DNA from: a virus
Lineage: Duplodnaviria; Caudoviricetes
Length of the DNA stretch: 64,000 nt
Direction: 5' to 3' (one strand)
IMG/VR virus record: IMGVR_UViG_3300034157_000065
Coordinates: 64,001-128,000 of that record
The notes beneath the pieces are model-generated. The model saw nothing but the letters and a program-made list of their open reading frames with translations, was not told the origin of the DNA and searched no databases. Made by a program: the position numbers and the translations under genes. Positions 885 through 51,541 of this stretch are shown piece after piece; positions within the stretch are counted from its first letter, which is position 1; each line of letters starts with the position of its first letter.

Positions 885-1496
885 ATGGCACATGAAGAAC
901 AATTGAAGACCGTTGTGGATCGTATGAAATCTGTCTATGATATTGACATTATCAGTATGTGTTTGGTTAAAAATCAACATACTATTTATACAGCCAAGAC
1001 ATCTCTTGGCCCCGCTCGTATTTATATTCACAATATGTGTGCTAACATCACTTTCACATCAAGTATCGTTTTTGATGGTCAAAATCTCAATTTAAAGAAA
1101 GATGGTTCTAACCTTCAGCCCATTGTTGATGATATTAATGAACGAGCGATGGTGCTTAATGTGGTTAAATTGAAAACGATGGGTGGTAAACATATCCATT
1201 TCTTCGAAGATACTAAGTTTACGCTTAAATTCATTGTTAGCTATGCTTTAAAAAACCCACAAATTGTTTTTAAGGCTGTTCCTTATCCCCATTATGCCAA
1301 GTTTGTGTTTCTGGATGAAGTTGATTATCCGGGGTGTCAAAAAGAATTCCAAATCTCCTATATTCGAGATACTTTTCAGTCAATGTATGGCATTGATCAA
1401 GCCTTCCATTTTGTGCATGATTACTTTAAATCTAAAAAGATGACAATGGATGATGTTGTGAGATTAACAGCCCTTAATGATATGGTGATGATATGA
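885..1496 (+). CDS. hypothetical protein, C-terminal MxxI-tag family
   Basis: GGAG RBS before ATG 885; ends LNDMVMI. Confidence 0.8.
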   Translation: MAHEEQLKTVVDRMKSVYDIDIISMCLVKNQHTIYTAKTSLGPARIYIHNMCANITFTSSIVFDGQNLNLKKDGSNLQPIVDDINERAMVLNVVKLKTMGGKHIHFFEDTKFTLKFIVSYALKNPQIVFKAVPYPHYAKFVFLDEVDYPGCQKEFQISYIRDTFQSMYGIDQAFHFVHDYFKSKKMTMDDVVRLTALNDMVMI

Positions 1497-2140
1497 AAAG
1501 CTATAACGAATCGGACCCCATCCATCTTACTAGTATTGAGTCTGCACGTAAAATTCTGGTTGCTAAATTTGGCATTGACTTTACTAATGTAACCCGTGAA
1601 AGCCACGGAGACTATGTGGCTTCTGGGAAATATCCTGTCGATATTTATGCTTTAAACCACACCGATCTATACATTGGGATTAAAAATTTATTGCATCTTG
1701 AAAATGGTCTTTTAGTTTCAAAACTCAATGATCCTATGATTAATGAGTTCGTAAGAGATATGAACTCTTTCTTTTATATTTTCGACGCCTTACGTTTTAC
1801 AACGTGGTATAAAGATGTATTCTATTCTATTTTAGATAATATTAAACCTTCTATTATTTTCAAATATAATATTGAGTGTGATGATATGATGATTCATCTT
1901 GACTTAAACCCCAGTATTGAATCAGAAGATTCTATTTACATCACAACAAAAGATATCATTATTCAACATGGTTATGAACCCGCTGGTTTTAAAGCCGTCT
2001 ATCATGCAAATGGTTCGAACTATTTCAGTGATTTGTTGACTTACAAAACTAGACTTTTAAAGGTTTGGAATATTGATGAAAATAGTAGTGATATTGACTA
2101 TAAACGTCTTGGCGATTTAACTGACATGATTAATATTTAA
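1493..2140 (+). CDS. hypothetical protein, C-terminal MxxI-tag family (paralogue of 2145)
   Basis: ATGA overlap with upstream gene; ends IDYKRLGDLTDMINI. Confidence 0.85.
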   Translation: MKSYNESDPIHLTSIESARKILVAKFGIDFTNVTRESHGDYVASGKYPVDIYALNHTDLYIGIKNLLHLENGLLVSKLNDPMINEFVRDMNSFFYIFDALRFTTWYKDVFYSILDNIKPSIIFKYNIECDDMMIHLDLNPSIESEDSIYITTKDIIIQHGYEPAGFKAVYHANGSNYFSDLLTYKTRLLKVWNIDENSSDIDYKRLGDLTDMINI

Positions 2141-2144
2141 GGAC

Positions 2145-2870
2145 TTGATGATGACTGATGCTATTAAATCTAATGAAGAACAAGAAGAATCATCGTATGG
2201 ACGAGCATTACGAGAGTTTGTTTTTACGCCTGAACCTCAGAAATCAACTCGTGAAAAGGTTATGGATGTTAAACAATTGATTTTTGAGCATCTAAATATC
2301 TCTATTCATAATATGGAACCATCTTTATTTGGTGAATACACTGCAAAATCAGATGATGGGCATGATGTTAATATCTATTTATCTGGCTTTGGTGATGTTT
2401 GTTTTGCATTTGACAACATCATTACGCTTGATAATGGAATCGTTTCATCCGCCTTAAAATCGCCTATCATTCAGACTATGTTGAAAGATGTCAATCAATA
2501 TTTAGGCATTACTGAAAGTTTTCGTCTGACTAACGATCACATTGAACATTTGCCAGTTTTACCCAATGTTAAACCTTGGCTTGTGTTTAAATATATGAAA
2601 GAAACTAATAGCATTACTATTCAGGTTAGTTTTAAAATTTCTCTTAGATCAACAGGTGAGGCTTATTATTTAACGACCAAACAGACAGCCATTCAACATT
2701 TTTATGAACCATCTGGTTTTAATTGTATTTACTCAATTACAGGCGACAGTATTACTAATGATATTCAACATTATAAGGAACGTATGCTAAATGTATGGGG
2801 ACTTAACGAAGACGGCCAAGAAATTGACTATAAAAGACTTGGGGTATTGTCGGATATGATCAGTATTTGA
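2145..2870 (+). CDS. hypothetical protein, C-terminal MxxI-tag family (paralogue of 1493)
   Basis: shares IQH.YEP.GF and IDYKRLG.L.DMI.I with 1493. Confidence 0.85.
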   Translation: MMMTDAIKSNEEQEESSYGRALREFVFTPEPQKSTREKVMDVKQLIFEHLNISIHNMEPSLFGEYTAKSDDGHDVNIYLSGFGDVCFAFDNIITLDNGIVSSALKSPIIQTMLKDVNQYLGITESFRLTNDHIEHLPVLPNVKPWLVFKYMKETNSITIQVSFKISLRSTGEAYYLTTKQTAIQHFYEPSGFNCIYSITGDSITNDIQHYKERMLNVWGLNEDGQEIDYKRLGVLSDMISI

Positions 2871-2925
2871 TTGCTTCATTTCCATCTTTCTGTTATACTC
2901 AGGCACCTTATTGGAGATATTTCAC

Positions 2926-3075
2926 ATGAAAAAATCATTGTTGGCTCTTTGTCTTATGTTTGGTATGACCCAAGTGCAAGCGGCTGAACGTATTGTTATT
3001 GATATTCTCTTCCCGGTGACCTTGTGTGGCCCTATTTCCAAGCCCGCTACACAATTGAAAAAATGTGAGATCTAA
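2926..3075 (+). CDS. small secreted peptide (49 aa, not in ORF track)
   Basis: TGTTATACT -10, GGAG RBS, MKKSLLALCLMFGMTQVQA signal peptide; stop abuts next ATG. Confidence 0.65.
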   Translation: MKKSLLALCLMFGMTQVQAAERIVIDILFPVTLCGPISKPATQLKKCEI

Positions 3076-3567
3076 ATGCAGAGTTACATTTCATTCAAAG
3101 AGCTTCTTGAACAACCTGTTCAATCAATCGTTTCAGATGATGATGATGTTGAAGACTATTTGTCTATTCAAATTGGTGAGTTGGTTGATTTTCCAAGAAA
3201 TTTTAAAAATAATGAAGCCATCAAAATTCATATTTTTGAAGATTTCTGTTATGATGGCCGGCGAGTATGGCAACTTTTTTATGTTACGTTTAAAGATAAA
3301 ATTGTTATGGCTTGTTATGCGGCTGGTCGAGAAGGACAAGACAGTTATTCAGCCAGAGTTTTTGACTTGGAAGCTTTTTCTGAGATGGTTATGTTTATTG
3401 CCGAACAACGTGATTTTTATGACATTGAAAAGTTAAAACATGATGAATTGAATAAAATTAGAAAAAAGATTGCCGCTATTGATATACCGACTGGTTTTGA
3501 TGAAAGTGCGAATGATTTTATCAATTTTTATAGCAATAAATTTAATGATGTCTTTAGTAATTGGTAG
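3076..3567 (+). CDS. hypothetical protein
   Basis: 163-aa ORF with typical composition. Confidence 0.8.
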   Translation: MQSYISFKELLEQPVQSIVSDDDDVEDYLSIQIGELVDFPRNFKNNEAIKIHIFEDFCYDGRRVWQLFYVTFKDKIVMACYAAGREGQDSYSARVFDLEAFSEMVMFIAEQRDFYDIEKLKHDELNKIRKKIAAIDIPTGFDESANDFINFYSNKFNDVFSNW

Positions 3568-3611
3568 CCTTGTGATATAATACAGGCCACACATGAGAGT
3601 AGAGGCTAATC

Positions 3612-4136
3612 ATGACTTTATCCATACGCAAAGAATACGAAACCTTGGGGGTTGATACCTATTACAGCGATCATGCTGAAACGTATCATAATCCTCATGC
3701 TGCCTTCGCATTGAACTGTCTTGACCAACTTTGGGAAAAAGACTTTAAAAGCGTGCTGGATTTTGCTTGTGGTGATGGCCTTGTCTCTAAGCACCTTGCT
3801 AAAACTCAATCCGTAGATAGCATTGTTGGCTGTGATAAATTTCTATTTTCCCGTTATATAAAAGAAACCCATAATGAATGCTTTCAATATTCTTTCGAGG
3901 ATATTGCTAATGGCAACTTTGAGATGCCCAAGGTTGATGTGATTGTTTTTAGCTATGCCATTGACCTTGTTGAATCGTCTTACTTGAATACTATGCTTTA
4001 TGGACTTTCAACAGTGGCTGAGAATTTGATTGTTATTCGTCCTAACAACCATGTTGTAGAACATTTTGCTTGGACATTAAGTAACTCTGTAAAAGTAGAA
4101 AAATCGCGTGGCATGTTGTATACAAAAACCATTTAA
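3612..4136 (+). CDS. class I SAM-dependent methyltransferase
   Basis: motif I VLDFACGDG, acidic end of beta2 (IVGCD). Confidence 0.75.
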   Translation: MTLSIRKEYETLGVDTYYSDHAETYHNPHAAFALNCLDQLWEKDFKSVLDFACGDGLVSKHLAKTQSVDSIVGCDKFLFSRYIKETHNECFQYSFEDIANGNFEMPKVDVIVFSYAIDLVESSYLNTMLYGLSTVAENLIVIRPNNHVVEHFAWTLSNSVKVEKSRGMLYTKTI

Positions 4137-4150
4137 CTAGGAGCTTTAAA

Positions 4151-4570
4151 ATGATGAAGAAAATTGTTGGTCTAATGCTTATGTCCTTGTGCTTAATGAG
4201 CTTGGGTGCTTATGCTAATACTAGTGTTAGCACTTCTATTATCAATACAGTTGCCGCTTCTAGCATTATTGATGACCCCGAGGTTGAACCAGTAGCTGAA
4301 CCTGTTGTGGCGGTAAAGATTGAAGCAAAAGAAAAGTCATACAATGTAGAACCAGCCGGTAGTTATATGTTTACCATTTGTAATAGTGGACAAGCACAGA
4401 CAGCCCTTGCTTGGCAAACGGTTTGTGTAGCTGACAGGAAGCGTTCATTCATTTCCAGTATGTGTCCTATCATGTCTTATTTGCGTTATTGCCAACCTGC
4501 CACCGCACAGGAAGTAAAAGGATTGAACCCTTTGAAAGCGAATTATAATAACGTATTCATCAAAGAATAA
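4151..4570 (+). CDS. secreted hypothetical protein, Cys-containing
   Basis: signal peptide MMKKIVG...AYA; AGGAG RBS. Confidence 0.75.
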   Translation: MMKKIVGLMLMSLCLMSLGAYANTSVSTSIINTVAASSIIDDPEVEPVAEPVVAVKIEAKEKSYNVEPAGSYMFTICNSGQAQTALAWQTVCVADRKRSFISSMCPIMSYLRYCQPATAQEVKGLNPLKANYNNVFIKE

Positions 4571-4572
4571 AG

Positions 4573-5064
4573 GTGAATTCTATGAACTCTGCACCACTCA
4601 TGTATTCGATTACGTTTAAGCAAAAGATTGAGCCTTTCATGACTCATGATGATTTGAAACGAGTCACCAACATAATCATTGAAAATTGGTCTAAGATAGT
4701 TGATGAAACGCTAGCTAATGCAACACCAGAAGATTATAAGAACCCTTGGAACTATGTAGATCTTAATCGTGGCTTGATTTCTGGTAAGCTTTTGAATTAT
4801 AATAGCCGGGTTGTAGGTGACGATCTTGTTATTGAATTCAATCTGAATGAGATTCTGGATAGTTCATCAGAAATTAAAGCTGATTACTGGGAAGACAAGT
4901 ATCTTCAAAATTACAATGATGTTGAAAAATTGTTTCACCCACTCATTGATCGCTTTTTTAATAACTTTGGTGGTGCTTTCAGTTTCATTATGTTCGAAGA
5001 AATGGTTGCCAGTAACAATTTTAAAGAGTTTCCACAAATGCAACACAAGTTGTTTAATAAATAA
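4573..5064 (+). CDS. hypothetical protein
   Basis: ORF in operon; start may be ATG 4582. Confidence 0.75.
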   Translation: MNSMNSAPLMYSITFKQKIEPFMTHDDLKRVTNIIIENWSKIVDETLANATPEDYKNPWNYVDLNRGLISGKLLNYNSRVVGDDLVIEFNLNEILDSSSEIKADYWEDKYLQNYNDVEKLFHPLIDRFFNNFGGAFSFIMFEEMVASNNFKEFPQMQHKLFNK

Positions 5065-5095
5065 ATTTAACTCTCTTAGTAAAGGAAAAAACAAA

Positions 5096-5428
5096 ATGAT
5101 TAAACTGATGTTCTCGGCTGTCACTCTTGCTCTGTGTGCTTTTCAAACCGTTGCTCTGGCTGGTCCTATGGTTGTGATGCCAAGAGTTTATGTTGCACCT
5201 GTGCGTGTTGCTCCTGTTACTCCGACTGTCAAAGTAACGCCACCACCGGCCCGTGTGCAAGCCCCCAAAGCTAGCCAGCCTGATACGACTGCTACTAGTC
5301 TGATTCCCATCATGACAGGTATTGCTGTTATGAACGCCACTTCATCCGCGAATGCCGCCACTTCAGAAGAAGATGAACCTGAACAATCTGATGACGAATC
5401 TTCAACCGACGATTCTGTTAAAGAGTGA
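5096..5428 (+). CDS. secreted/membrane Pro-rich low-complexity protein
   Basis: AAGGA RBS, signal peptide MIKLMF...ALA, Pro/Val-rich middle, acidic tail. Confidence 0.7.
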   Translation: MIKLMFSAVTLALCAFQTVALAGPMVVMPRVYVAPVRVAPVTPTVKVTPPPARVQAPKASQPDTTATSLIPIMTGIAVMNATSSANAATSEEDEPEQSDDESSTDDSVKE

Positions 5429-5513
5429 TAGTCAAGACGGCATGATTGTGGTATAATAGCTTCAATTAAACGAGTTATCTTATCCCAATTATGCCATCTT
5501 GAAGGTAAATGAT

Positions 5514-6125
5514 ATGACCACTGAAACCGAATACCCTTTGATTGAAAACCTTGAACTTGTTAAACGCAAGAAGTTCGAAACACCAGAACAACGTCTTCAT
5601 GCTATTATTACCGTTCTTGATGAGGAAGCATCTTCTCGTTGGGTAGAACGGGATTCTGACGAAGCTGTTCCGGTTGAAATGCGTCGTCAGTCTAATTACC
5701 GTTGGGATGTGGCTAGTTGCGTATTCAAGGATGATGACATTCTGCACATGATGCGAGTTAAAGAATTGACCAACACTGTCACTCAAAGTCACTTGCTGTG
5801 TGTGTCTTTACCCGAAATCTTTTACGATATGGCTGCCAACTTGCTTTACCTTTCTTATGCAAAGGACAGTGGCAGTCAGTTAACCGCAGAAGAAAATAAT
5901 GAAATCATCAAAACTATTTTTGGTGAGCAATTTTCTCGCTTGGATCAAGCTTTTCATGAATGGTTGATTGAGCATGTTCCAAAAATGTTGGTGGTGCATC
6001 CCGCTTGGACGAATACTGACCCAGTTAAATATACTGCAAGTCAAGTTCAGCATTATCGCACAACTTACGAAGGTTCTTTTTTTATGCCTCATATTGAAGA
6101 AGCAATTCAAAATGTTACAGGTTAA
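5514..6125 (+). CDS. hypothetical protein
   Basis: upstream TGGTATAAT, AAGGT RBS. Confidence 0.8.
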   Translation: MTTETEYPLIENLELVKRKKFETPEQRLHAIITVLDEEASSRWVERDSDEAVPVEMRRQSNYRWDVASCVFKDDDILHMMRVKELTNTVTQSHLLCVSLPEIFYDMAANLLYLSYAKDSGSQLTAEENNEIIKTIFGEQFSRLDQAFHEWLIEHVPKMLVVHPAWTNTDPVKYTASQVQHYRTTYEGSFFMPHIEEAIQNVTG

Positions 6126-6153
6126 AATTCCTAAAAACTAACTTTTAAGCTGT

Positions 6154-6177
6154 AAAGCCTCTTCGGAGGCTTTTTTT
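6154..6177 (+). terminator. intrinsic terminator (UUCG loop)
   Basis: AAAGCCTC-TTCG-GAGGCTTT + T-tract. Confidence 0.85.
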
Positions 6178-6248
6178 ATGAATTTTAATTAACTTGATTT
6201 TTTCTGTAAGAGTGCTACTCTTTTATTTACACTAATGGAGCCATCAAA

Positions 6249-6830: not shown

Positions 6831-6871
6831 TAAAACCTGCTATAATTGGCTCCAACAACGGAGCCTTTTCT

Positions 6872-19734: not shown

Positions 19735-20382
19735 ATGAGAAAATCAATTACTGTCACCACCATTGAAGAATTGAAATCAGTTGCATTTGATTACAATGCT
19801 CCGGTTTTTGTTGCTCCTGATATTCTTATCAGTGACTTTATTGCTACTGATGATGAATGTGATAAATTATTGGCTAACTTGAAAAATTATCATAAAGATG
19901 TGATTGCTTTCTTTTTTGTCCATGAAGGTTTTCGTGTTTACTTCTTAATTATTGATCATTTTGTTGTATTGAAAAAATATGCCATTGATAATGTAACGAT
20001 CCTTAATTTGAAAAAATTTGTGATTCAATCAGTTCGTTTTGATTCAAGTAGTCACGAGTGGGAAGAAAAACAATTTTATACTTATAACCGTGGAAATAAA
20101 CCTGAAAGTGTTGTCCGCAATTATGGATCTTTTATTGCTAAGTATCGCTATGTTTATGATAAAACCTATGTGAGCCAAATTAGAGTCACTGATCAATCCC
20201 AATACCTTATTGACATGACCTTTAAACGCAATGGTCGGGAGATAACATTGGTCGAATTGGCAGCAGACTATCCAGAAATTGCATCCGCTTTGAGAGGTAA
20301 AGTTCGATCAATTGAAAACCTTACCAACAAAAGCAAATTGATTAAATCTTATCTACCTATTATTGATATGATTCTTATTTAA
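19735..20382 (+). CDS. hypothetical protein, C-terminal MxxI-tag family
   Basis: ends LPIIDMILI. Confidence 0.8.
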   Translation: MRKSITVTTIEELKSVAFDYNAPVFVAPDILISDFIATDDECDKLLANLKNYHKDVIAFFFVHEGFRVYFLIIDHFVVLKKYAIDNVTILNLKKFVIQSVRFDSSSHEWEEKQFYTYNRGNKPESVVRNYGSFIAKYRYVYDKTYVSQIRVTDQSQYLIDMTFKRNGREITLVELAADYPEIASALRGKVRSIENLTNKSKLIKSYLPIIDMILI

Positions 20383-21957: not shown

Positions 21958-22749
21958 TTAAATTGCTATCATGTCTATTACATTCATATAATCTAAGAAC
22001 GCTGTTCGTTTGTCACCTGTTAAGCTTCTGAAAAAGTATTTATGAACGTCCCGCATCCATTCTGATTGTGTAAAATCTATATCATTGTAATTGATAAATG
22101 AGGCATCAACAAAATCTCTTTCAGTTATGACATGTTTTACAAACTTTAAAAACATAAGTTCGGTTTCAAACTTCTCAAAACCTTCCATTGAATAATTAGA
22201 ACTTGAATTATTAATTTTTGATTCAAACCCACGTAAATAAACCTTATGCTCAGTGTCAAAACGATATTTTAAAGTAGTTCTTATTTTTGGATATTCTGGT
22301 GTTTTTATATAATTTTCTTTGATGATTTCATATATAGTTTTATTGTTTGTATCTTCATCTAATGAAAACTCTAATTTAGAAAAATCGTCATTAAAATGAT
22401 TAATATTTAAAAGATTCATTACACTTAAATCATTTTTTGATCCCATATATGTTGAATGCCATCTATTGTATTGTCCATGTTGATTAAAATATAAATGTAC
22501 AGGTATTACAATATAACAATCGAAAAAATTAATAGCAAAGTTAACTGTACAGTAATCCTTAGTGTTATAAAATTTGGTAGTTGTTCCATAAATCCCAAGG
22601 TTACTTTGAATATCTTCGTTTGTGATATTTTGATTATTATTCATTTTTACAAATTTTTCGTACAATAATTCCCACACCTTACCTTCTTGGTCTTTCGCAA
22701 GGTTGGGGTTTCTTGATAATTCTTCGTAATTTGGAAATGAAAGATACAT
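21958..22749 (-). CDS. hypothetical protein, C-terminal MxxI-tag family (paralogue of 21130)
   Basis: ends GDKRTAFLDYMNVIDMIAI; GAGG RBS. Confidence 0.85.
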   Translation of the reverse strand: MYLSFPNYEELSRNPNLAKDQEGKVWELLYEKFVKMNNNQNITNEDIQSNLGIYGTTTKFYNTKDYCTVNFAINFFDCYIVIPVHLYFNQHGQYNRWHSTYMGSKNDLSVMNLLNINHFNDDFSKLEFSLDEDTNNKTIYEIIKENYIKTPEYPKIRTTLKYRFDTEHKVYLRGFESKINNSSSNYSMEGFEKFETELMFLKFVKHVITERDFVDASFINYNDIDFTQSEWMRDVHKYFFRSLTGDKRTAFLDYMNVIDMIAI

Positions 22750-25555: not shown

Positions 25556-26179
25556 ATGAATGTCAATGCGGCTGAAACAGATAGCTTTAAAGAACTGTTT
25601 ACTGTGTTCGCTAAGGAACACGATATAACGGTGGGACGTTATTGTGCAGTCAAACTGCTAAGTTTCTACAATTATAATTTTGATCCGGTTCTGCTCTTTC
25701 AACTGGATGCTGATTTGGTTGCTCCACTTGTCTTAAAACCTTTTAAACATTTTCATGTGAAAAAGCTAGTCACCCGCTTAACCGATTTTTTGGGTGAAGT
25801 CGTTGAAGATAGTTTAGAGGGGTTTCTTTCCGCCGACTTCTTTGATCAATTCATCCTTCACAACATTCAAAACATTGTATTGAAAGAAGGGTATACCAGT
25901 GTTCACGATGTGGCTTATTATCAATTAGAATTGATCAGCACATCTACACGCCTTATGGTGAATTTTCATACTGAACCTGCACAGCCTAGATTTTATAGAA
26001 ATACAGAAATGAAGGGATCTATTAAATACCTCAATATGGATGTTTATTATCGAGATTTTGAATCACTCAGAGAACCTATGTTGGCATATTATGCCGATGA
26101 AATTGGTAAATTCCTCAATATTCCAGTGAATGAAATTGACGATAACGTTTTGAAACTGGTTGAAATGGTTAAAATCTAG
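25556..26179 (+). CDS. hypothetical protein, C-terminal MxxI-tag family
   Basis: ends IDDNVLKLVEMVKI-TAG. Confidence 0.8.
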   Translation: MNVNAAETDSFKELFTVFAKEHDITVGRYCAVKLLSFYNYNFDPVLLFQLDADLVAPLVLKPFKHFHVKKLVTRLTDFLGEVVEDSLEGFLSADFFDQFILHNIQNIVLKEGYTSVHDVAYYQLELISTSTRLMVNFHTEPAQPRFYRNTEMKGSIKYLNMDVYYRDFESLREPMLAYYADEIGKFLNIPVNEIDDNVLKLVEMVKI

Positions 26180-26260
26180 CACGTTTCTCGTTTTTTCTTG
26201 ACGTGGAGTGATTTCTTTAGTATAATTACGAGATTGAAAATAAAAGAGGATTACATAAAA

Positions 26261-27346
26261 ATGTCTACGTTTAAAGCGACCGTTCTTCCAGTCATTGTTG
26301 AGCCACATCCTAACGCTGATGCGATTGAACTGGCTCGCGTCGGGGATTTCTTCTCGATCATCCAAAAAGGATACCTGAAAACAGGTGATTTGGCTGTTTA
26401 TATTCCAGAAGGTGCTCTTGTTCCTGATTTCATTCAAGAAGAAGTAGGTTGCCTTGGTAAATTGGCAGGTTCCAAGAAAAACCGTTTGAAGCCTTCCATG
26501 CTTCGTGGCATTCTCAGTCAAGGTCTTTGCTTCAAAGCCCGTGATGGCTGGGCTATTGGTGACGATAAAGCCGAAGAATTGGGTATCATCAAGTATGAAG
26601 CTCCTATTCCAGCTTCCATGAATGGTGAGATTTCTAACGTGGGTATTGAAAACACTTTCCACTTTGACATTGAAAACGTCAAGCGTTACCCTGATGTGTT
26701 GGTTGATGGTGAGCTTGTCTCCATGACTGAAAAACTTCATGGTACTTTCACTGTTGCTGGTAGCGTTTATGGCAAAGACCCTATTCCACATGTGGTTGAT
26801 GGTCGCTCATTCGTGAGTAGCAAAGGTTTCTTCAACAAAGGTTTGGTGCTTCGTGATAACGATCAAAATGCTCATAACATTTACATTCGTGTTGCTAAAA
26901 AGTTCAATCTTTACGAAATTACAGCTATCCTTGCAGATCGCTACAAAACTAATGCTTACATTTCAGGTGAGACATTCGGTGCTGTTCAAGATTTGACGTA
27001 TGGTTTGGACAATGGTGTGTTTGATTTCCGTGTGTTCAACGTCTTTCTTGGTTCCCGCACAGAAGCCAGTGGTGTGTTCCCTGTTAATGATGATGAACTT
27101 GAAGCCTTGTTGACTGAGTTCAACTTGAAGCGTGTTCCTGTGCTTTACAAGGGGCCATTCAGCAAAGAAGTCATGTTGCAATACACTGATGGCTTGGAAA
27201 CTTATTCGGGCAAGGAAACACACATTCGTGAGGGTGTTGTGATTGAACCACTTGTTCAACGTCGAGATTCTACTATTGGACGTGTTGTATTGAAAAGTGT
27301 TTCGACAGCTTACCTTTCTCGTAAAGGTGGAACAGAACTAAACTGA
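26261..27346 (+). CDS. RNA ligase, DRB0094-type (N-terminal OB-like module + Rnl2-type nucleotidyltransferase)
   Basis: HPNADAIELA N-terminus, TEKLHGT motif I, GETFG, REGVVI, LKSVS..YL. Confidence 0.9.
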   Translation: MSTFKATVLPVIVEPHPNADAIELARVGDFFSIIQKGYLKTGDLAVYIPEGALVPDFIQEEVGCLGKLAGSKKNRLKPSMLRGILSQGLCFKARDGWAIGDDKAEELGIIKYEAPIPASMNGEISNVGIENTFHFDIENVKRYPDVLVDGELVSMTEKLHGTFTVAGSVYGKDPIPHVVDGRSFVSSKGFFNKGLVLRDNDQNAHNIYIRVAKKFNLYEITAILADRYKTNAYISGETFGAVQDLTYGLDNGVFDFRVFNVFLGSRTEASGVFPVNDDELEALLTEFNLKRVPVLYKGPFSKEVMLQYTDGLETYSGKETHIREGVVIEPLVQRRDSTIGRVVLKSVSTAYLSRKGGTELN

Positions 27347-38669: not shown

Positions 38670-39302
38670 ATGCAAGAAAATATAATTAAAATTAAAGAAA
38701 CCTGTTTGAAGCTAGGCTTTCCAGAAGACTTTATAAATTGTTTACATATTACTGATGATGAAATGGATTCTGTTTTTTGTTCTGTTGTAATCAATGATTC
38801 TTCTGGACTCCCATTGTGTTCTGTTAATTTTATTAACACATCACAAGATGATTCTAAAAGTTTCTTGATGACATTTGACTTTATACATCAACAAGAGTTC
38901 TTAAAAAAACTATGGAATAATGATCATTCTTGTTCTATTATGTTTGATGGTGATTTAAATTTTGTAAATTTACAATCTAGTTCTCATTTAAATATCACAA
39001 ACGAAAAAACAGGAAAAAAATATTATTTAATAACGACCTTTCAATTTGATATTAATTCAGAACTACATACCATCCATAGTTCAGAAGTCAGTAATGGTGA
39101 TGAAGAACCATTCCATTTTAATAGAATTAAAGAAAATATGTTGTCAATTGATGATGAAACCATCTTAATTGAATTTATTAAATATAGACATAATCCATCT
39201 ATTATCGAGACAGTTCCTGAATTTTACATTCCTTCTGCCTATGACTTTAATTCAGAAGAATTTAAAAGCCGTATTTCATTAGCTAAAATGATGATGATTT
39301 AA
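38670..39302 (+). CDS. hypothetical protein, C-terminal MxxI-tag family (paralogue of 38008)
   Basis: ends VPEFYIPSAYDFNSEEFKSRISLAKMMMI. Confidence 0.85.
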   Translation: MQENIIKIKETCLKLGFPEDFINCLHITDDEMDSVFCSVVINDSSGLPLCSVNFINTSQDDSKSFLMTFDFIHQQEFLKKLWNNDHSCSIMFDGDLNFVNLQSSSHLNITNEKTGKKYYLITTFQFDINSELHTIHSSEVSNGDEEPFHFNRIKENMLSIDDETILIEFIKYRHNPSIIETVPEFYIPSAYDFNSEEFKSRISLAKMMMI

Positions 39303-39412: not shown

Positions 39413-40567
39413 ATGAATCTTTTTCCAAACATCGAACACATCAATGATATTTTGCCAGCTTTGGCAGGTAAAACCTATATCGGTGTGAACAAGCAATCTA
39501 ACGGTGCAACCGTTCTTTGCTACAACATCAGCAACGGTGAATCCTTTGCTACGCCTTTTGAAAAAGAATGCCGTGGTATCACCTTTGACCGTGATGGTAA
39601 AATTGTAAACCGTCCTTTGCACAAGTTTTTCAACTTGGCAGAGCGTGAAGAAGTATTGCCACACAACATTAACTGGGATGATGTGGTTGCTGTCTTCGAT
39701 AAGATGGATGGTTCCATGATTACTGCTGGTGTGTTTCATGGAGATGTTTTTGTAAAATCCAAAAAGTCTTTTGAATCTGATGTGGCTGTGTCGGCTTTGG
39801 CGTATGTTAAAGCAAACCAGAAATACGAAGATTTTATTAAGCATTGTGCATCCTTGGATTTGACACCAATCTTTGAATACACTTCGCCAAACAACCGTAT
39901 CGTGTTGCGTTACGATGAAGAAAAAATGACGTTGTTGCATGTGCGTCATACCATTACTGGTGCTTATTTTATGCCAGATGAAGTCGCAGCTTTGGCAAAA
40001 GAGTTTGATATTCCAGTTAACGTTCCATTGTTTGGTAAAGGTTTCGACTTGAAAGCATTGTTGCATTCGTTGGATACTGTAGAAGGGATTGAAGGTTACG
40101 TTATTCAGTTCTCTAACGGTAATATGGTTAAGGTAAAAACGACTTGGTATGTTAACTTACACCACGCAGTAACATTCGTGCGTATTCGTGACATTGCTCG
40201 CTTGGTTTTATCCGAGAAAATTGACGACTACATTGCATTTGTTGCATTACATGCAAAAGACGCTGATTTGACTCACATCCATTACATCAATGATACGATT
40301 AAAGCAGAAATTGAAGGCATTAAGAAAGACGTTGCAGATATTTTGGCTCAGCATGAAGGTGTTGATTTCAAAACCTTGGCAACCACTTACTTGGGTCATC
40401 CATATTTCTCTTTCATCATGACTACCGCTCGCGGTAAAGAAGTTGATTACTTGGATTACTATGAACGCAACCGTTTGAAAGAAGTCTGGTCTTTGGAGCA
40501 AGTTGACTTGGGCAACTTCACAGGGATTGATGATTCTGATGATGAAGTTCCCGTAGACGAAGATTAA
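39413..40567 (+). CDS. rnlA: T4 Rnl1 (RnlA)-type RNA ligase
   Basis: ECRGI.F, RPLHKFFN, KMDGS motif I, EYTSPNNRIV, EGYV, VKVKT.WY..LH. Confidence 0.92.
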   Translation: MNLFPNIEHINDILPALAGKTYIGVNKQSNGATVLCYNISNGESFATPFEKECRGITFDRDGKIVNRPLHKFFNLAEREEVLPHNINWDDVVAVFDKMDGSMITAGVFHGDVFVKSKKSFESDVAVSALAYVKANQKYEDFIKHCASLDLTPIFEYTSPNNRIVLRYDEEKMTLLHVRHTITGAYFMPDEVAALAKEFDIPVNVPLFGKGFDLKALLHSLDTVEGIEGYVIQFSNGNMVKVKTTWYVNLHHAVTFVRIRDIARLVLSEKIDDYIAFVALHAKDADLTHIHYINDTIKAEIEGIKKDVADILAQHEGVDFKTLATTYLGHPYFSFIMTTARGKEVDYLDYYERNRLKEVWSLEQVDLGNFTGIDDSDDEVPVDED

Positions 40568-41911: not shown

Positions 41912-42541
41912 ATGAGGTCTTCAATAGTGATTAATTTAGTTACCGACAAACCAACCATTAAAACCATTAAATCAGGTTTGAATTCAGAACACATTGAACA
42001 TCATGCCGTTCGGATTGATCACTGGGTGTATAATGCTCAAATCTTCCGCGATTTGCAGATGGATAATAATGGGTTCAAACCCCCTGCTGACATTCTTAAT
42101 TATCTTTATTGTGCTTCTTACAATGACTTTTTAAAAGCCTATAACATTACCAAGAGTAGTTTTGTTTTTGATACCTTCAGACGTTACAAACATTACGCCT
42201 TGGAATACCAAAAAGGATCAGATACCTATTACTTTACCGTTAGCTATAATTCTGAGCGTGGCATGGATATCATCTTTTATCCACACATGATACCTTCTGG
42301 TTTTGATGCTAGGGCTTGGAACGAGTTTGAGGGTGAATTGTATTTACAATATGCAAACCTTATGTATTATTTCTTGTCAGAGTTTTATGCATCAATTTTG
42401 AATCATTTGTTTGATACTTATGATGTTAATTCAATTATTGATAATTTCTCAAAATCATACCGCAATTCAGCCGGTGCTGTTGCTATTTTGACTGAGTTTG
42501 AACAAACTCGTGATATTACTTTAATCATGCCAAAATTGTAA
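41912..42541 (+). CDS. hypothetical protein
   Basis: 209 aa; ends TLIMPKL (borderline tag match). Confidence 0.75.
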   Translation: MRSSIVINLVTDKPTIKTIKSGLNSEHIEHHAVRIDHWVYNAQIFRDLQMDNNGFKPPADILNYLYCASYNDFLKAYNITKSSFVFDTFRRYKHYALEYQKGSDTYYFTVSYNSERGMDIIFYPHMIPSGFDARAWNEFEGELYLQYANLMYYFLSEFYASILNHLFDTYDVNSIIDNFSKSYRNSAGAVAILTEFEQTRDITLIMPKL

Positions 42542-45457: not shown

Positions 45458-45488
45458 GTTTTTCCCCACTTTCAACTGAGGCTGAATA

Positions 45489-45752
45489 ATGAACCTTATC
45501 ACAATTACACATTTGCCTATGCAACAAGTCAGTAGTGTTTATTACAAAGATGCGTTTATCGGCCTTGTACAAGATGGTGATTTTGTTACTATGCAGCGAT
45601 TGATGAACGAAGCAATGGATCGTCATGTTAAAAAAGAAAAAGAGAAAGGAACTACAGCTCTTTTGAAAGTGGCTCGTGCTGTTTATCGTCTTGATCAAGA
45701 TGAAGTTTCTGAGGCTAGAATGCTTGAAATGGTTAAGGAAGCCTTCGCATGA
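45489..45752 (+). CDS. hypothetical protein (paralogue of 45173)
   Basis: same motif; GAGG RBS. Confidence 0.8.
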   Translation: MNLITITHLPMQQVSSVYYKDAFIGLVQDGDFVTMQRLMNEAMDRHVKKEKEKGTTALLKVARAVYRLDQDEVSEARMLEMVKEAFA

Positions 45753-46222: not shown

Positions 46223-46270
46223 AAGAAAATGGTTGACTTTGTGTTGGTGTTACACTATAATTATCAAATC

Positions 46271-46354
46271 GCGGAAATGGTGGAATGGCAGACACTCTGG
46301 TTTTAGGTACCAGTGCCGCAAGGCGTGTGGGTTCGAGTCCCACTTTCCGCACCA
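46271..46354 (+). tRNA. tRNA-Leu(TAG)
   Basis: GCGGAAA/TTTCCGC acceptor, CTGGT-TTTAGGT-ACCAG anticodon arm, long variable arm, GTTCGAGT, ACCA; promoter TTGACT-17-TATAAT (46233-46261). Confidence 0.97.
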
Positions 46355-46432
46355 GTTTATATAAGGCTCACAGTTGTGGGTCTTTTTTTTAACTATTTGT
46401 TGGTATCTTCAATAATTTAAGAGGTTGTTATT

Positions 46433-46642
46433 GTGCCTAAAACCATTCCACTAACCAGAAAGAAAACTAATCAATTACTTTTTGTAGCTGTTTTTTCTTT
46501 TGTTGGTATTTTTATTGGTATGATGATTTTTGGGATTAGTGTCCATCATTTCAACAATCAAAATTCAAGGTATAACACCAATTCTGACAAATCTCAGGAC
46601 TTGATCAAATCTTTCTTTTTTCAAAAAGGAAGTGGTAAATGA
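46433..46642 (+). CDS. small single-TM protein
   Basis: GAGG RBS, GTG start, one TM. Confidence 0.6.
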   Translation: MPKTIPLTRKKTNQLLFVAVFSFVGIFIGMMIFGISVHHFNNQNSRYNTNSDKSQDLIKSFFFQKGSGK

Positions 46643-47142
46643 TTATTCCTGTCTATCATGATTTTGTCGAAAAATACAAACCCGTAAACCCATTTGAAAG
46701 AGATCCTTATGGTGCCGGTGGTTGGATGACTAATGACAGCTATTATGCTATTCATAAAAAATCCCGTTTCATTGATGTTCATGAAATGTTAAATAGCTTA
46801 TATGAAGATAAATTAGTCAGTTACATCCGTACAGATACTCGCTTAATGTCTGTTGAGCAATTTGAGGATCGATTTTCTATTTTTGATTCCATTGCTAACT
46901 TATGTTTCAATGACAAAGCTACTATGCGATTGTTAATGAAAATGGATATGAACTTGATGAAGCCGGGTCACTGGGTAGACGATTTAAATGTCCCGCACTA
47001 TGCATTAACTCCAGTAGCCTGTCCTATTGATATGAATATGGATATTTATTTTAATACCAGTAGACGACCTTATGAGGAAGTCCGTAAAAACATTTATCTC
47101 GATATTTGTAAAGCCTACATCAATCTCTTCATTCCAGATTGA
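46639..47142 (+). CDS. hypothetical protein
   Basis: ATGA overlap, 167 aa. Confidence 0.75.
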   Translation: MIIPVYHDFVEKYKPVNPFERDPYGAGGWMTNDSYYAIHKKSRFIDVHEMLNSLYEDKLVSYIRTDTRLMSVEQFEDRFSIFDSIANLCFNDKATMRLLMKMDMNLMKPGHWVDDLNVPHYALTPVACPIDMNMDIYFNTSRRPYEEVRKNIYLDICKAYINLFIPD

Positions 47143-47191
47143 GTCTTTTCTTCGTTTGTGTTATAATCAACGAAATCTTAGAGGAACTACC

Positions 47192-47770
47192 ATGACCAGT
47201 CTTGATCTCATTTTGAAAAATATGATCCTTTCTGCACCCCATCTTTATCCAACGACTTGGCAGTGTTATGCCTCTATTTTCCTTGATGTGAACTCTGGAT
47301 TTATGTTTGCTAACTCCGAAATTCAATGCCCCTTTGAAGTCAAAGAAAGTCCTGTTATCAATGAGCGATATCTTGAACTCTACAAAACGCTGGCTGTCAC
47401 TGAAACAGGTGAACTGGATTATGGCATGAAGTTGTTGATGAATGATTTCATCAAAGAAAATATTGATGTGATTGTTAATACAAAATGTGTCTATATCGAA
47501 TACCTTAAGCCCTCTCTTGATGATTTAGCTTTATGTTTGGATGAATCCCCTGTCTGGTTGATTGATGATTCTTATCCTGTCGATGTCTTTAAAGCCGCTA
47601 TTGATGTCTTGGAGAAGGTGAAACATTTGCTTTGGAATCATTATGGCCTACATCATTGCCTTACACGTCCTATTGAGCGTGCATCGTGGCAAGAAGTGTG
47701 CTATCATACAGCCTATGTTAAAGTCTCTGAGCGACTTGAAACCCTTAAACCACAAAGGATTCCAGCTTAA
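47192..47770 (+). CDS. hypothetical protein (N-terminus similar to 47770)
   Basis: GAGGA RBS before ATG 47192. Confidence 0.8.
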   Translation: MTSLDLILKNMILSAPHLYPTTWQCYASIFLDVNSGFMFANSEIQCPFEVKESPVINERYLELYKTLAVTETGELDYGMKLLMNDFIKENIDVIVNTKCVYIEYLKPSLDDLALCLDESPVWLIDDSYPVDVFKAAIDVLEKVKHLLWNHYGLHHCLTRPIERASWQEVCYHTAYVKVSERLETLKPQRIPA

Positions 47771-48354
47771 TGAAAGCCATTACTGTCATTAACTCTATCA
47801 TTGCTAAATATAACTTGTCCTTTTCCACTCGTTGGCGAGTAATGGAACACCTTTTTCTGGTGAATGGCAATGGCTGTTATTGGACATCCGATGGGTGTCT
47901 TGAAGGCAATGCTGAACATTATCAAGAAACTGATCTGGGTGAGAATAGAATTATTCAGTCGATGAATGAAATGCTGGAACTCACAAAAGATTATGACATT
48001 CCTCAGATGACAGATGCCTATCATTTGCAAATCAGATTTGAGCAAAGTCTTGATAAATTCAAACAAGCCAACATGAAGAAAATTGCGGCTAATCAATTCT
48101 TTTTCTTTGACAGTCAGATCCCTACATTTCAAGACCTGTCCCGTGCTTCGTTTAACCATCTGTTCTATGAAGTGCCTGATAACGTTCAACCTGACTGGAA
48201 AGCCTTGATTGTTGAAACGGCTTGTATTGTCCAGAAAGGCATTAAGGGCAGTTACTTTGTTTCTGGCCCTTTGACTGAACCAGAATCGTGGAGTAACCCA
48301 CAAGCATTTGCCGTTTACATGGCTGCAGAGAATCAGCTAAAATCTCTAAAATGA
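47770..48354 (+). CDS. hypothetical protein
   Basis: TAATG coupling, 194 aa. Confidence 0.8.
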   Translation: MKAITVINSIIAKYNLSFSTRWRVMEHLFLVNGNGCYWTSDGCLEGNAEHYQETDLGENRIIQSMNEMLELTKDYDIPQMTDAYHLQIRFEQSLDKFKQANMKKIAANQFFFFDSQIPTFQDLSRASFNHLFYEVPDNVQPDWKALIVETACIVQKGIKGSYFVSGPLTEPESWSNPQAFAVYMAAENQLKSLK

Positions 48355-48423
48355 TTTCTTAGTCTATTGATTTTTCGTCCTACTGTGTTATAATGGCCTT
48401 CTTAATTAGGGAGGGTCATTGTC

Positions 48424-48915
48424 ATGTCGAAAAATCATGAAATCGAAAATCTTGAAGATAAAATTTTCACGACCTTACGCCGTCATGGGAACTATTCTAT
48501 CCCTAAAAATGCGGTGAGCATCTACGCACCTATCCTTACTCTGCTTACTAAAATGAGTGAAGATGGCTTGGTAGTGCAAACTGAAAACCCTAATAACATT
48601 ATTTTCAACACGACAGAAAAAATGGATCAAACAGTTGTTATTCGTGGTGTGACTGCAGATAAAGTCCGTACAGGATTCCACCTTTGCCGTCAAAAGAATG
48701 ATGAAGTTGTTGCACAGGTTAATTCTCGCAACCGTGAAGTTTATATTAAGGATATTGACTTTCTTGGTGTTGTTCAGTCTGTGGAAACAAAAGAAGTGCC
48801 TGCTAATATTTGGGAAAAGCTTACTTTTAGAAAAAACAGCTTGAAAACAGTGATTAAATTCAAATACAAAACACTGGTGGTGTCTCCTGAAACTGAGTTG
48901 ATGAAAGTTCGTTAA
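48424..48915 (+). CDS. hypothetical protein
   Basis: TGTTATAAT, AGGAGG RBS. Confidence 0.8.
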   Translation: MSKNHEIENLEDKIFTTLRRHGNYSIPKNAVSIYAPILTLLTKMSEDGLVVQTENPNNIIFNTTEKMDQTVVIRGVTADKVRTGFHLCRQKNDEVVAQVNSRNREVYIKDIDFLGVVQSVETKEVPANIWEKLTFRKNSLKTVIKFKYKTLVVSPETELMKVR

Positions 48916-49048
48916 TTCTTATGATATCGTCATAATATCAATATAATTAAAATATAAAAAAATGATGGCAATTCATCTAGAACAAGCATTTCGGTGCTTG
49001 TTTTTTTTTAAATGCATAGTTATACTATTTTAATTATGGAGATTTACA

Positions 49049-49369
49049 TTGTTTAAAATTATTAGTTTATTTGGCATTATAGCCTTCTTATCTGGGTGTG
49101 GTGGTGATACTGTAATCAGTGAAGCCCCGCGTGAATTTATCGTTTTGGAATACGATGAACCTTATGGTTTTAGTGTTACGCTTGAAGACCTGATTACTCA
49201 TGAGATCTATAAAGATGTTTCAGTTTCCAGAACGTGTGATGATTACGCAAAGCTAAAAATTGATTCCATCTGGTCATTCCCTGTGACGACTTATGTGGAC
49301 AATTCTGGCACATCCTATTCCGTTGTAGATGCTACTGATTTATGCGATAAACTAGAAAAAATGCTGTAA
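49049..49369 (+). CDS. lipoprotein
   Basis: lipobox FLSG-C, GGAG RBS. Confidence 0.75.
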   Translation: MFKIISLFGIIAFLSGCGGDTVISEAPREFIVLEYDEPYGFSVTLEDLITHEIYKDVSVSRTCDDYAKLKIDSIWSFPVTTYVDNSGTSYSVVDATDLCDKLEKML

Positions 49370-49416
49370 AAACTTCTATATTCATGGTATAATTAGGCAT
49401 TCTTCATGATAAAAGG

Positions 49417-50103
49417 ATGTCTACCATGATTTCACTTAGCCCTCAATTAAACGGTCCTTTGAGTAAAATTAAAGAACTCATCAAACGTTATAAACTTTCA
49501 GAGTTTATTATTTCAGCATTTGTCCATGAAACCATTTGTATTGTTGTTATGGCCGGAGTTTTTGCCTATGGCCTTGATGTTCAAAGCCGTGAGATTATCA
49601 CCTTTACTGCTTTTAATGGTATCACCTCCTTTTGTTTGTTTTTGTTCATTCTTTGGATGACAACTAAAGCTCAGCTTCCCGATCATTATTACAGTTGGTC
49701 AACAGCTATCAATTATGGGGCTGCTATTTTGCTGTTACCTTATGCTTTGTTTATTGACCATAAGGCTATGATAGCTATTTCAATGATCTTTTTCTTTGTG
49801 AATATTTTTAACTTGTGTGTCCTGTTACACATTTTGAACTTTCGATCAAACTATTCTCATGATTGGAGTGCTTTGCGAAAACTTACCACTGTTAAAAATC
49901 ATTTTAAGTTCAAGCTTTCAATGGGCCATAAATTAAATGTTATCATGCCTAATGGTTTCGTGACTATTTACTTTGATACACTTTCCTTTAATGGTGTAGA
50001 TTATGATTTGTATCATCTCACCAAATACTTTGAAACCCATGATCTAGATTTATACACCGCCACGGATGATGATTTTAAACTGTTTGAAATGATCCGATAT
50101 TAA
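49417..50103 (+). CDS. 4-TM membrane protein, C-terminal tag family
   Basis: 4 TMs + soluble tail ending DDDFKLFEMIRY. Confidence 0.8.
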   Translation: MSTMISLSPQLNGPLSKIKELIKRYKLSEFIISAFVHETICIVVMAGVFAYGLDVQSREIITFTAFNGITSFCLFLFILWMTTKAQLPDHYYSWSTAINYGAAILLLPYALFIDHKAMIAISMIFFFVNIFNLCVLLHILNFRSNYSHDWSALRKLTTVKNHFKFKLSMGHKLNVIMPNGFVTIYFDTLSFNGVDYDLYHLTKYFETHDLDLYTATDDDFKLFEMIRY

Positions 50104-50126
50104 TTACGTTAACTAAGGGTTTACCT

Positions 50127-50789
50127 ATGAATAAAATTATATTTTTTTGTCAACGTTTGTTTGTCTCATATTCTGTGTCTTTGATGGCTATTATTTTTTC
50201 TATTTTTTTTGGAATAGCTAACTCAGGCATTGTAGAATCTGATATCATTGGAATTGTGGTAACAGGTTGCTTAGCCTTGGTTATGCTTGTTATGTGTGCG
50301 GATGGCCGTACAGAAATCAAAAATATTACTTACTATTCAAAAGTGGCGAGTCTAAACTATCTATTCAGTCTTTTTTTGATTGTGTATACTGTTTTAATGA
50401 AAGGCTTTCATATATATTTCATGTTGGCACCTGCTCTATTATTAAGTATTTTTAATATATATCTGTGTTTTAAAATGCAATCAAACCTTTCTAATCTAGT
50501 TGTGGTTCCTGAACTGCAAAAGCTCCGTAAATTGCTACCTGATGTCAAACACATCAAGATTGATTATGATTACACTTTTTTGAAACCCACTGATTCCCCA
50601 CGGTATGAACCAAGAGCTTATAAAATTATCACGACGCTTGGAAATCTACTTTTTGATGGAAAATTCTTTTATCTGAATGGTAAGACTTATGAGATAGCTA
50701 ACTTTATTTCTGGTTACCGATCTTGCGAGATTGACATGGATACATCAACACCAGAAGATGCGAAAGTTTTGGAAATGTTTTGTGTCTAG
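50127..50789 (+). CDS. 4-TM membrane protein, C-terminal tag family
   Basis: 4 TMs; LRKLLPD.KH; ends TPEDAKVLEMFCV-TAG. Confidence 0.8.
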   Translation: MNKIIFFCQRLFVSYSVSLMAIIFSIFFGIANSGIVESDIIGIVVTGCLALVMLVMCADGRTEIKNITYYSKVASLNYLFSLFLIVYTVLMKGFHIYFMLAPALLLSIFNIYLCFKMQSNLSNLVVVPELQKLRKLLPDVKHIKIDYDYTFLKPTDSPRYEPRAYKIITTLGNLLFDGKFFYLNGKTYEIANFISGYRSCEIDMDTSTPEDAKVLEMFCV

Positions 50790-50878
50790 AAGCATTGAAA
50801 CATGCTATTTTGAGCTATTAAATTAGCTAGTAATAGTGTATAATCAAGTTCTATTTTAAATAATGCCATGAGGTATTT

Positions 50879-51541
50879 ATGAAACCGCTAAACATCTTAC
50901 GTCAATTAAACCTCGCTTCTTTCATTATGTTGGCGTGTGCTATTTATTGTGCTGTGGCTTCCTTTCAGTATGTAACAGTCAATAGCAATCAGTTTTTCTT
51001 TGCTGTCGGTGGTGTCACTTCGGTGATGTTAGGTTTTGCAGTGGTCTTGAATGTATTGAATATTTTCATGATGCCGCGAGATAAGTTCTATTCCAACGGT
51101 GCATGGACATTCCATTTGCTCAGTGTGCTGCTATTGTTTACATCGTTTACAGCACCCGAAGAATATTTGATCAACTTTATCAGTATCGGTGTGCTTTCAA
51201 TTTTCAATATTGTCGTCTTTTTAAGCACGATGTCATTTCGTTCTCGTGAATCGACATTGATTAATCAACTCCGCAAACTGTTTCCTGATGAAAAACATTT
51301 TAATTTCGATATTGATTTCAAATTTAAGAAAGATTTTATTGAAGAAGCTGACCATAGTTATTTTTCGGCTATTCGTGTCTTAACACCCTTTGGTAAAGTT
51401 GTCTTTGTGGGGGATGATTTCTATTTTGATGAACGTTTCCATGAAGCTAAACGCTTTGTTACTAGCCTTAAAGATTGTGGTTTTAAATTTAACAAAGCGA
51501 CACCCGATGAAATGAAAGTTGTTGAAATGCACGTTTATTGA
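50879..51541 (+). CDS. 4-TM membrane protein, C-terminal tag family
   Basis: 4 TMs; LRKLFPDEKH; ends TPDEMKVVEMHVY. Confidence 0.8.
   Translation: MKPLNILRQLNLASFIMLACAIYCAVASFQYVTVNSNQFFFAVGGVTSVMLGFAVVLNVLNIFMMPRDKFYSNGAWTFHLLSVLLLFTSFTAPEEYLINFISIGVLSIFNIVVFLSTMSFRSRESTLINQLRKLFPDEKHFNFDIDFKFKKDFIEEADHSYFSAIRVLTPFGKVVFVGDDFYFDERFHEAKRFVTSLKDCGFKFNKATPDEMKVVEMHVY

Follow-up and report, generated by a model that had tools for sequence, protein, structure and literature searches.

A C-terminal helix with a near-invariant methionine recurs on many ORFan proteins of an uncultivated phage-like clade and may act as a common interaction handle

The stretch of DNA analysed here, referred to below as the window, comprises 64,000 nucleotides, bases 64,001–128,000 of the 192,830-bp IMG/VR virus record IMGVR_UViG_3300034157_000065 (Duplodnaviria; Caudoviricetes; called G000 here; CheckV completeness estimate 59%). 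It contains thirteen open reading frames (ORFs), in several clusters on both strands, whose products end in a similar short sequence with an aliphatic residue at position −7 from the C-terminus, a charged residue at −5, Met at −4 and a hydrophobic last residue. This ending, the tag, is the subject of the present work. An earlier note, made from the letters alone, had drawn attention to it and had read it as a free-C-terminus docking helix borne by mostly unrelated proteins. The thirteen tagged ORFs are:

870–1496, + strand: 208 aa from TTG 870, ending ...LNDMVMI; a distant member of family F; −1.4 bits, a weak extended-motif score
1493–2140, + strand: 215 aa, ending ...LTDMINI; family F; 15.1 bits
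2145–2870, + strand: 241 aa, ending ...LSDMISI; family F; 12.8 bits
19735–20382, + strand: 215 aa, ending ...IIDMILI; BLAST singleton in G000 with a homologue in the relative G001; 12.4 bits
20392–21021, + strand: 209 aa, ending ...LMRMIDI; BLAST singleton in G000; 14.7 bits
21130–21942, − strand: 270 aa, ending ...LIEMIEI; family D; 20.8 bits; 15 aligned homologues all have Met at −4
21958–22749, − strand: 263 aa, ending ...VIDMIAI; family D
25556–26179, + strand: 207 aa, ending ...LVEMVKI; BLAST singleton in G000; Met and Ile of the tail unchanged in homologues down to 51% identity
38008–38661, + strand: 217 aa, ending ...LTKMITI; family A; confident AlphaFold2 (AF2) model
38670–39302, + strand: 210 aa, ending ...LAKMMMI; family A
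49417–50103, + strand: 228 aa, ending ...LFEMIRY; family E; three transmembrane (TM)-like segments, then a soluble C-terminal part
50127–50789, + strand: 220 aa, ending ...VLEMFCV; family E; four TM-like segments
50879–51541, + strand: 220 aa, ending ...VVEMHVY; family E; three TM-like segments

All thirteen C-termini are exactly as the earlier note wrote them, with TAA, TGA and TAG stops all in use; for the first ORF the tail was right but the start was not, the frame opening at TTG 870 and the previously given 885 being an internal ATG. The proteins represent six or seven families, namely F (870, 1493 and 2145), D (21130 and 21958), A (38008 and 38670), E (49417, 50127 and 50879) and the separate proteins at 19735, 20392 and 25556, a hidden Markov model (HMM) tying the protein at 870 to the 1493/2145 family. 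Searches of the tagged window proteins against Pfam and PHROGs returned nothing significant, and comparison with cultured phages by megablast and tblastn gave no match.

In a simple, non-overlapping set of 291 ORFs from the whole record, 54 end in M-x-x-[IVLYF]-COOH, compared with 2.6 expected from the internal rate and with a mean of 2.5 and a maximum of 9 in 500 shuffles. The full seven-residue expression fits 34 of the 291, for which the internal rate predicts 0.14 and the shuffles give a mean of 0.15 and a maximum of 2. The C-terminal enrichment over shuffled and internal positions is therefore real, and on a larger scale than had been noted. It extends to five relatives from IMG/VR that were reached via family A (G001–G005; 1.3 Mb together with G000), one of which, the 437-kb G001, is rated 98% complete: tagged ORFs number 75 of 566 in G001, 36 of 236 in G002, 45 of 255 in G003, 49 of 275 in G004 and 41 of 202 in G005. 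Pooled over the six records, 300 of 1825 ORFs are tagged against ~15 expected (1.8–4.4 per record), an enrichment of at least 20-fold, and the tagged share amounts to 13–20% of the ORFs of each record.

Motif statistics from 129 tails (those of G000 and G001) extend the consensus to h-[ST]-x-[DE]-[DE]-h-x-h-h-x-M-h-x-h-COOH, where h is hydrophobic and the last residue is chiefly Ile or Tyr. Besides −4 and −1, the informative positions are −7 (Leu, Val or Ile; 1.6 bits), −5 (Glu, Lys or Asp; 1.1 bits), −11 (Asp, Ser, Glu or Asn; 1.0 bit), −9, −13 and −15; at −7, Leu occurs 62 times, Val 25 and Ile 24, and Gln was not seen. The motif is thus an N-capped, strongly hydrophobic terminal helix of about 14 residues. 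A position-specific scoring matrix (PSSM) trained on G001 only, and scored without positions −4 and −1, gave the C-termini of tagged G000 ORFs a mean of +5.7 bits and those of untagged ORFs a mean of −10.2 bits, with 43 of 54 and 7 of 237, respectively, above 2 bits. With this cross-genome matrix twelve of the thirteen window proteins were clearly positive (4.8 to 13.2 bits), the protein at 870 again being the weak one. A fourteenth window ORF ending in M-x-x-L (41912–42541, ...IMPKL) scored −8.1 bits and, because it does not fit the extended motif, is taken to be a chance match.

At the nucleotide level, Ile is encoded by ATT, ATA or ATC, Leu at −7 by six different codons, and stop-codon usage is that of the untagged genes without any preference, so that the constraint lies on the protein and not on a DNA repeat, as had been proposed. 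The motif is also strictly terminal, again in line with the earlier claim. A 14-column matrix reaches 10 bits or more at 122 of 857 C-termini and at 9 of 170,308 internal positions; as these tails had also served to train the matrix, the evidence lies solely in how rare the internal matches are. The two best internal matches are themselves tails bearing one extra residue.

The tail is conserved beyond the bodies that carry it. Between G000 and G001, which are syntenic over ~120 kb of the latter, the last 14 residues of paired proteins are 51% identical compared with 32% for the rest, the tail being the higher in 21 of 25 pairs. The tag persists in G005 at the frequency given above despite only 13 ORFs in common with G000, at a median identity of ~34%. 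A family A profile retrieved 136 clusters among 1.84 billion representative proteins, in 108 of which Met occupies −4 and in 25 of which Leu, Ile or Val does, and the chain nearly always ends three residues on; in long relatives (320–384 aa) the beta body is duplicated and a single tail module stands at the very C-terminus. A scan of GTDB genomes for family A found none.

With their tails removed, the 300 tagged proteins form 108 BLAST families (71 singletons), only 10 of which span both lineage groups. Repeated rounds of HMM searching, run on the genome and on the pooled set, merged few families, and in profile–profile comparison of enriched alignments of families A, B, D, E and the 25556 protein only the tails aligned, save for a weak match between A and B (hhalign probability 28–64%); hhalign also linked the subfamilies of D. 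The bodies of most families thus do not align by these methods, in keeping with the earlier note, whereas those of A and B are distantly related. Carriers vary less in length than other ORFs and tend to be longer, with a median of 250 aa (interquartile range 220–272; span 147–408) compared with 174 aa, and most are soluble, family E and a few others having two to four TM-like segments.

Tagged genes occur in tandem arrays and as paralogous expansions. Family B forms a row of 14 tandem genes at G000:169034–180847; 13 carry the tag, and many run ~20 bases into the gene that follows. Inserted in this array, at G000:177641–178459, is a 272-aa ORF with 59% identity to a G005 ORF.

Modelling with AF2 from 112 sequences gave, for the 38008 protein, a compact single domain (predicted local distance difference test, pLDDT, 92.6; predicted template-modelling score, pTM, 0.87) with one helix at the N-terminus, eight strands, and three helices at the C-terminus; helix 203–216, which follows Ser202, is the tag. 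The tail helix and the loop preceding it are the best-conserved part of family A. The modelled fold found no convincing match in the PDB (Foldseek; VIA-align best Z 5.0), BFVD or the ESM Atlas, and the family-A body is possibly a new fold; its elements come in an order like that of p32/gC1qR, but this likeness scored poorly. The 25556 model, from 8 sequences, is unusable (pLDDT 41) and helix-rich where family A is beta-rich. A Thy1 (ThyX)-like identity of the same protein, suggested by an ESM Atlas feature search (0.94), was rejected, there being no Pfam match and no RHR signature in the alignment. The ESM Atlas gave nothing for family D, and PDB sequences searched with profiles of families A, B and 25556 gave nothing either.

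Our best explanation, which we put forward tentatively, is that the tag is a clade-specific interaction handle, common to its carriers and read by one shared partner. The capped hydrophobic helix ending three residues after Met would be the handle; a fast-turning-over accessory repertoire, the 13–20% of ORFs that are tagged, would carry it, its variable bodies supplying specificities or activities; and the constant tail would couple all carriers to one presumed partner, a hub protein or an AAA+-type machine. We favour such a handle because of the motif's strictly terminal position, its survival of an almost complete turnover of its carriers, its occurrence on architecturally different proteins and its near-invariant Met. 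The tail consensus also shifts genome-wide between lineages, as would follow if many tails kept pace with one reader: Asp stands at −5 in 17 of 54 tails (31%) in G000 and in 4 of 75 (5%) in G001 (p = 1.5e-4) at equal overall use of Asp. This statistic treats paralogues as independent, and the shift is only suggestive. That it forms a proteome-scale address system, in which one reader (a phage MoxR-type AAA+/von Willebrand factor A (VWA) machine or a host hub) grips 40–75 proteins per genome, is a possibility we regard as somewhat doubtful. Were it true, it would let the phage treat its entire accessory arsenal as a unit to be loaded, localised, activated or removed. If there is one reader, the infection cycle would have it as a hub, and protein targeting would be a possible use of the tag. 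Huge phages have ORFans by the hundred, and already the motif sorts a sixth of them into one experimentally tractable class, and under either a functional or a structural explanation it is a compact marker of the uncultivated clade.

By analogy, the closest precedent for such a handle is the set of clamp-binding epitopes of T4-type phages, in which short hydrophobic–acidic C-terminal sequences of gp43, gp55 and gp33 are interchangeable handles for one partner, the clamp, and of which the RB69 gp43 tail was crystallised as a gp45 ligand (PMC2988020). Both systems place a short hydrophobic and acidic segment at the extreme C-terminus of unrelated phage proteins, as the comparison with the RB69 tail indicates. 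The T4 epitopes, however, belong to three proteins associated with DNA or RNA polymerase and sit on an unstructured linker, in contrast to a longer, capped helix on 40–75 ORFans per record that in family A, one family, is modelled inside a domain. The acidic C-terminal tails with an aromatic end of the Escherichia coli single-stranded DNA-binding protein (SSB-Ct) and of T7 gp2.5 and gp4 likewise combine a free C-terminus, acidic residues and a hydrophobic tip into a docking handle on several proteins, but these disordered runs of acidic residues have neither a helix nor a conserved Met and are confined to replication proteins. In poxviruses, dozens of paralogous ankyrin/PRANC proteins join variable target-binding bodies to a constant C-terminal module that connects them to a host machine; that module is an F-box-like domain of ~40 residues on recognisable repeats in eukaryotic viruses, as opposed to 14 residues on unrelated ORFan bodies here.

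The only lead that a search for a reader yielded is a set of ATPase genes found in relatives. G001 has two AAA_5 ATPase ORFs (154405–155667 and 159692–160957), each followed by an ORF of 436–488 aa, as well as two DUF2201_N (VWA-type) proteins somewhere in the record, and G005 has one AAA_5 ORF of 765 aa (G005:121545–123842). The pairs of AAA_5 ATPase and large ORF are:

G001:154405–157088: first pair
G001:159692–162637: second pair, directly followed by a tagged gene

The first G001 ATPase matches only PDB entry 2R44, which we take to be a MoxR-type ATPase. By analogy, MoxR-type AAA+/VWA pairs of the relatives are candidate readers of the tag. In MoxR-class pairs (CbbQ–CbbO with Rubisco; NorQ–NorD) the AAA+ ring recognises the final residues of its client, a set distance from the end; each known case involves a single client, unlike the present one, and a link to the tag is a candidate only. 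Common to all lineages, being conserved in G001 and G005 too, are ~200-aa trypsin-like serine proteases that have their His/Asp/Ser triad intact (GMSGGPVY) and bear a signal peptide with a lipobox; three copies lie in G000:

Window 54648–55286, − strand: trypsin-like protease
G000:131162–131866: trypsin-like protease
G000:187405–188007: trypsin-like protease

Given their lipoprotein signal peptides, these proteases probably act outside the cytoplasm and are unlikely to be cytoplasmic readers.

Several observations weigh against a handle. The final two blocks of ten residues in the confident family-A model, which contain the tag, have pLDDT values of 95 and 89, and hydrophobic residues at −1, −3, −4, −6, −7 and −9 cover most of the surface of the tag helix, on which grounds it probably packs on its own body, the chief evidence against a free peptide; of the docking helix with a free C-terminus proposed earlier, the helix and its need to end the chain stand, but the only confident model places that helix inside a compact domain. 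Families A and B, which BLAST keeps separate, have the body motif [FV]-D-x-[DN]-L-N-F in common, so that some apparently unrelated bodies are distant homologues, and given this sequence motif a deep common ancestry of further families is conceivable. A Pfam domain was recognised in only one of 126 carriers, a deaminase whose ending is probably a chance one, and at most 4 carriers match any PHROG family; the untagged ORFs of the same genomes match dozens of families, and a tag serving as a general address ought to occur on some known enzymes, yet no recognisable one carries it. Some family-A relatives end in non-hydrophobic residues (Cys, Asp, Thr, Asn or Ser). Lastly, no reader was found in the 1.3 Mb of related sequence.

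Much of this favours the main rival explanation, a purely structural one that keeps its strength though it is on the unlikely side, in which there is no external reader, the carriers are one or a few hyper-diverged ORFan superfamilies, and the last helix closes the fold or self-associates and is simply the slowest-evolving element. The helix placed confidently inside one compact domain and hydrophobic nearly all round, the uniform length of the carriers about a median of 250 aa, the 125 of 126 carriers without a Pfam domain, the lack of a tag on any recognisable enzyme, the tandem arrays and paralogous expansions, and the motif common to A and B all agree with it; were it correct, these would be among the largest hyper-diverged protein superfamilies in any phage and would point to an intense arms race. 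Core helices, however, normally exchange Leu, Ile, Val, Phe and Met, whereas ~108 families here keep a near-invariant Met at a constant number of residues before the stop, and the motif is not internal even where the body is duplicated. Nor do carriers that include membrane proteins with 3–4 TM segments and span 147–408 aa look like one fold; the low-confidence 25556 model is helix-rich in contrast to beta-rich family A, and for D, E and 25556 profile–profile comparison detected no homology of the bodies. Within the handle explanation, a special case that is distinctly unlikely when taken by itself is that the tail serves an AAA+ machine or protease (the MoxR-type ATPases of the relatives, or host ClpX, ClpA, FtsH or Lon) as a grip or degron for timed remodelling, loading or destruction. 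Such a machine can handle membrane and soluble clients alike, AAA_5 ORFs are present in G001 (two) and G005 (one) together with the two DUF2201_N proteins of G001, hydrophobic C-termini are common degrons (ssrA–ClpX, Tsp), and the MoxR-class CbbQ–CbbO acts on the C-terminal tail of its Rubisco client. Degrons, though, are usually unstructured, as is the LAA-like end of ssrA that ClpX or SspB reads, and the tail, with its M-h-x-[I/Y] end, is a capped helix modelled as packed; moreover, the candidate ATPases are known from the relatives G001 and G005 only.

Quite improbable in our view is an address for export, injection or encapsidation, that is, a signal for a type I or type IV secretion system (T1SS, T4SS), a capsid or encapsulin-like cargo peptide, or a peptide of the microcompartment type. 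The tagged share of 13–20% is on the scale of effector arsenals, and there is a formal likeness to C-terminal signals that are acidic and then hydrophobic and to amphipathic encapsulation helices. Signals of the Dot/Icm (type IVB) system mark ~10% of a proteome and have acidic residues around −10 to −17 (the E-block) and hydrophobic ones near the end, but they are loose and disordered, have no invariant residue or fixed register and need Dot/Icm, in contrast to the phage-like context here (Rnl1, Rnl2, RegB, tRNAs). Encapsulation peptides of bacterial microcompartments (BMC) and encapsulin cargo peptides are similar in forming a terminal amphipathic helix of ~10–18 residues on unrelated cargo with one shell as reader; theirs, however, are attached via flexible linkers to known enzymes, whereas some carriers here are membrane proteins and no gene for a BMC shell (PF00936) or encapsulin (PF04454) was found in five records. 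The same five records gave no ABC ATPase (ABC_tran) match for type I secretion, for which a host system is possible, and the searches of these records brought up neither an HK97-type capsid nor a terminase. In G001, a record with two major facilitator superfamily (MFS) transporters, the TolC-like gene adjoins two large ORFs, which suggests an efflux pump; multi-pass membrane carriers are unfit as cargo for packaging or T1SS; and we know of no signal of these kinds with an invariant Met. Very improbable, despite the precedent above, is that the tail is itself a sliding-clamp-binding peptide, whether like the PCNA-interacting peptide (PIP), the gp45 epitope or the bacterial QL[SD]LF motif. The RB69 DNA polymerase tail, ...SLFDMFDF, does fit [LVI]-x-[DE]-M-x-x-h-COOH, its ...LFDMFDF end also fitting the seven-residue expression of the earlier note, and in E. 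coli Pol III, alpha carries QADMF and epsilon QTSMAF. Against it, the first position of the bacterial motif is Gln and −7 here is Leu, Val or Ile; a 14-residue helix is unlike a short, flexibly linked peptide; ORFans and membrane proteins, as opposed to DNA enzymes, carry the tag; and dozens of competing clients per cell are hard to rationalise. Furthermore, neither a gp45-type clamp (DNA_PPF, above cut-off) nor a beta clamp (DNA_pol3_beta_3) was found in five records, which may be fragments, and no RB69 replication homologues were found in the records searched. A further reading has the motif act as a nascent chain inside the ribosome, where, with a stop codon occupying the A site, it would pause or tune termination. 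This would account for the motif's strict register to the stop codon and its independence of the body fold, but we find it hardly credible: there is no stop-codon preference, the spacing to downstream genes is inconsistent, the helix-capping and hydrophobic patterns are typical of folded protein, and to our knowledge no arrest peptide is similar. Chance or a DNA-level repeat, for which only the single chance match at 41912–42541 speaks, is refuted by the at least 20-fold enrichment in six records, the synonymous codon variation and the prediction of the tags of one genome by the PSSM from another.

A DNA_PPF match in a family-B gene (18 bits, below cut-off) was judged to be due to chance, the family-A model not having a clamp fold and A being related to B.

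As to genomic context, G000 and its relatives have a high gene density, predominantly one coding strand and the standard genetic code, with no sign of stop-codon recoding in their ORF lengths. Their gene content includes T4-type Rnl1 and Rnl2 ligases, RegB, polynucleotide kinase (PNK), HNH nucleases and tRNAs, as well as tRNA synthetases, GatA/GatB, NAD synthesis genes and DnaK. A terminase, an HK97-type capsid and a sliding clamp had no Pfam match in the related records (1.3 Mb), and the replicon possibly extends well beyond 437 kb or is not an ordinary phage. Contigs of 0.83, 1.07 and 1.85 Mb hold close homologues of window genes. In G001, 182807–184708 encodes a full-length DnaK with 65–73% identity to gammaproteobacterial DnaK, and the record also encodes several tRNA synthetases, GatA/GatB, NAD synthase, nicotinate phosphoribosyltransferase (NAPRTase) and a chemoreceptor signalling domain; its transport genes are MFS transporters (two detected) and the TolC-like outer-membrane protein. 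At about window 666–828, where a tRNA with an amber anticodon had been proposed, ARAGORN called none. Other features of the window, the tRNAs having been located by ARAGORN, are:

26198–27346: Rnl2-like RNA ligase (PF09414 with a PHA02142 OB domain), immediately 3' of tagged gene 25556
39413–40567: T4 Rnl1-like RNA ligase (PF09511), immediately 3' of tagged gene 38670
46271–46354: tRNA-Leu(TAG)
60884–60957: tRNA-Cys(GCA)

An untagged paralogous family of ~600 aa, without a Pfam domain, is among the few untagged families common to all three divergent lineages. Its members are at:

G000:28837–32393
G001:53903–57360
G001:326356–329947
G005:18135–19943
G005:37207–38970
G005:81688–83472

A DEDDh_C domain (Pol III epsilon-like, C-terminal) occurs in eight G001 ORFs, an unusual expansion, and G000:161964–162938 is a further copy with 73% identity to its G001 counterpart.

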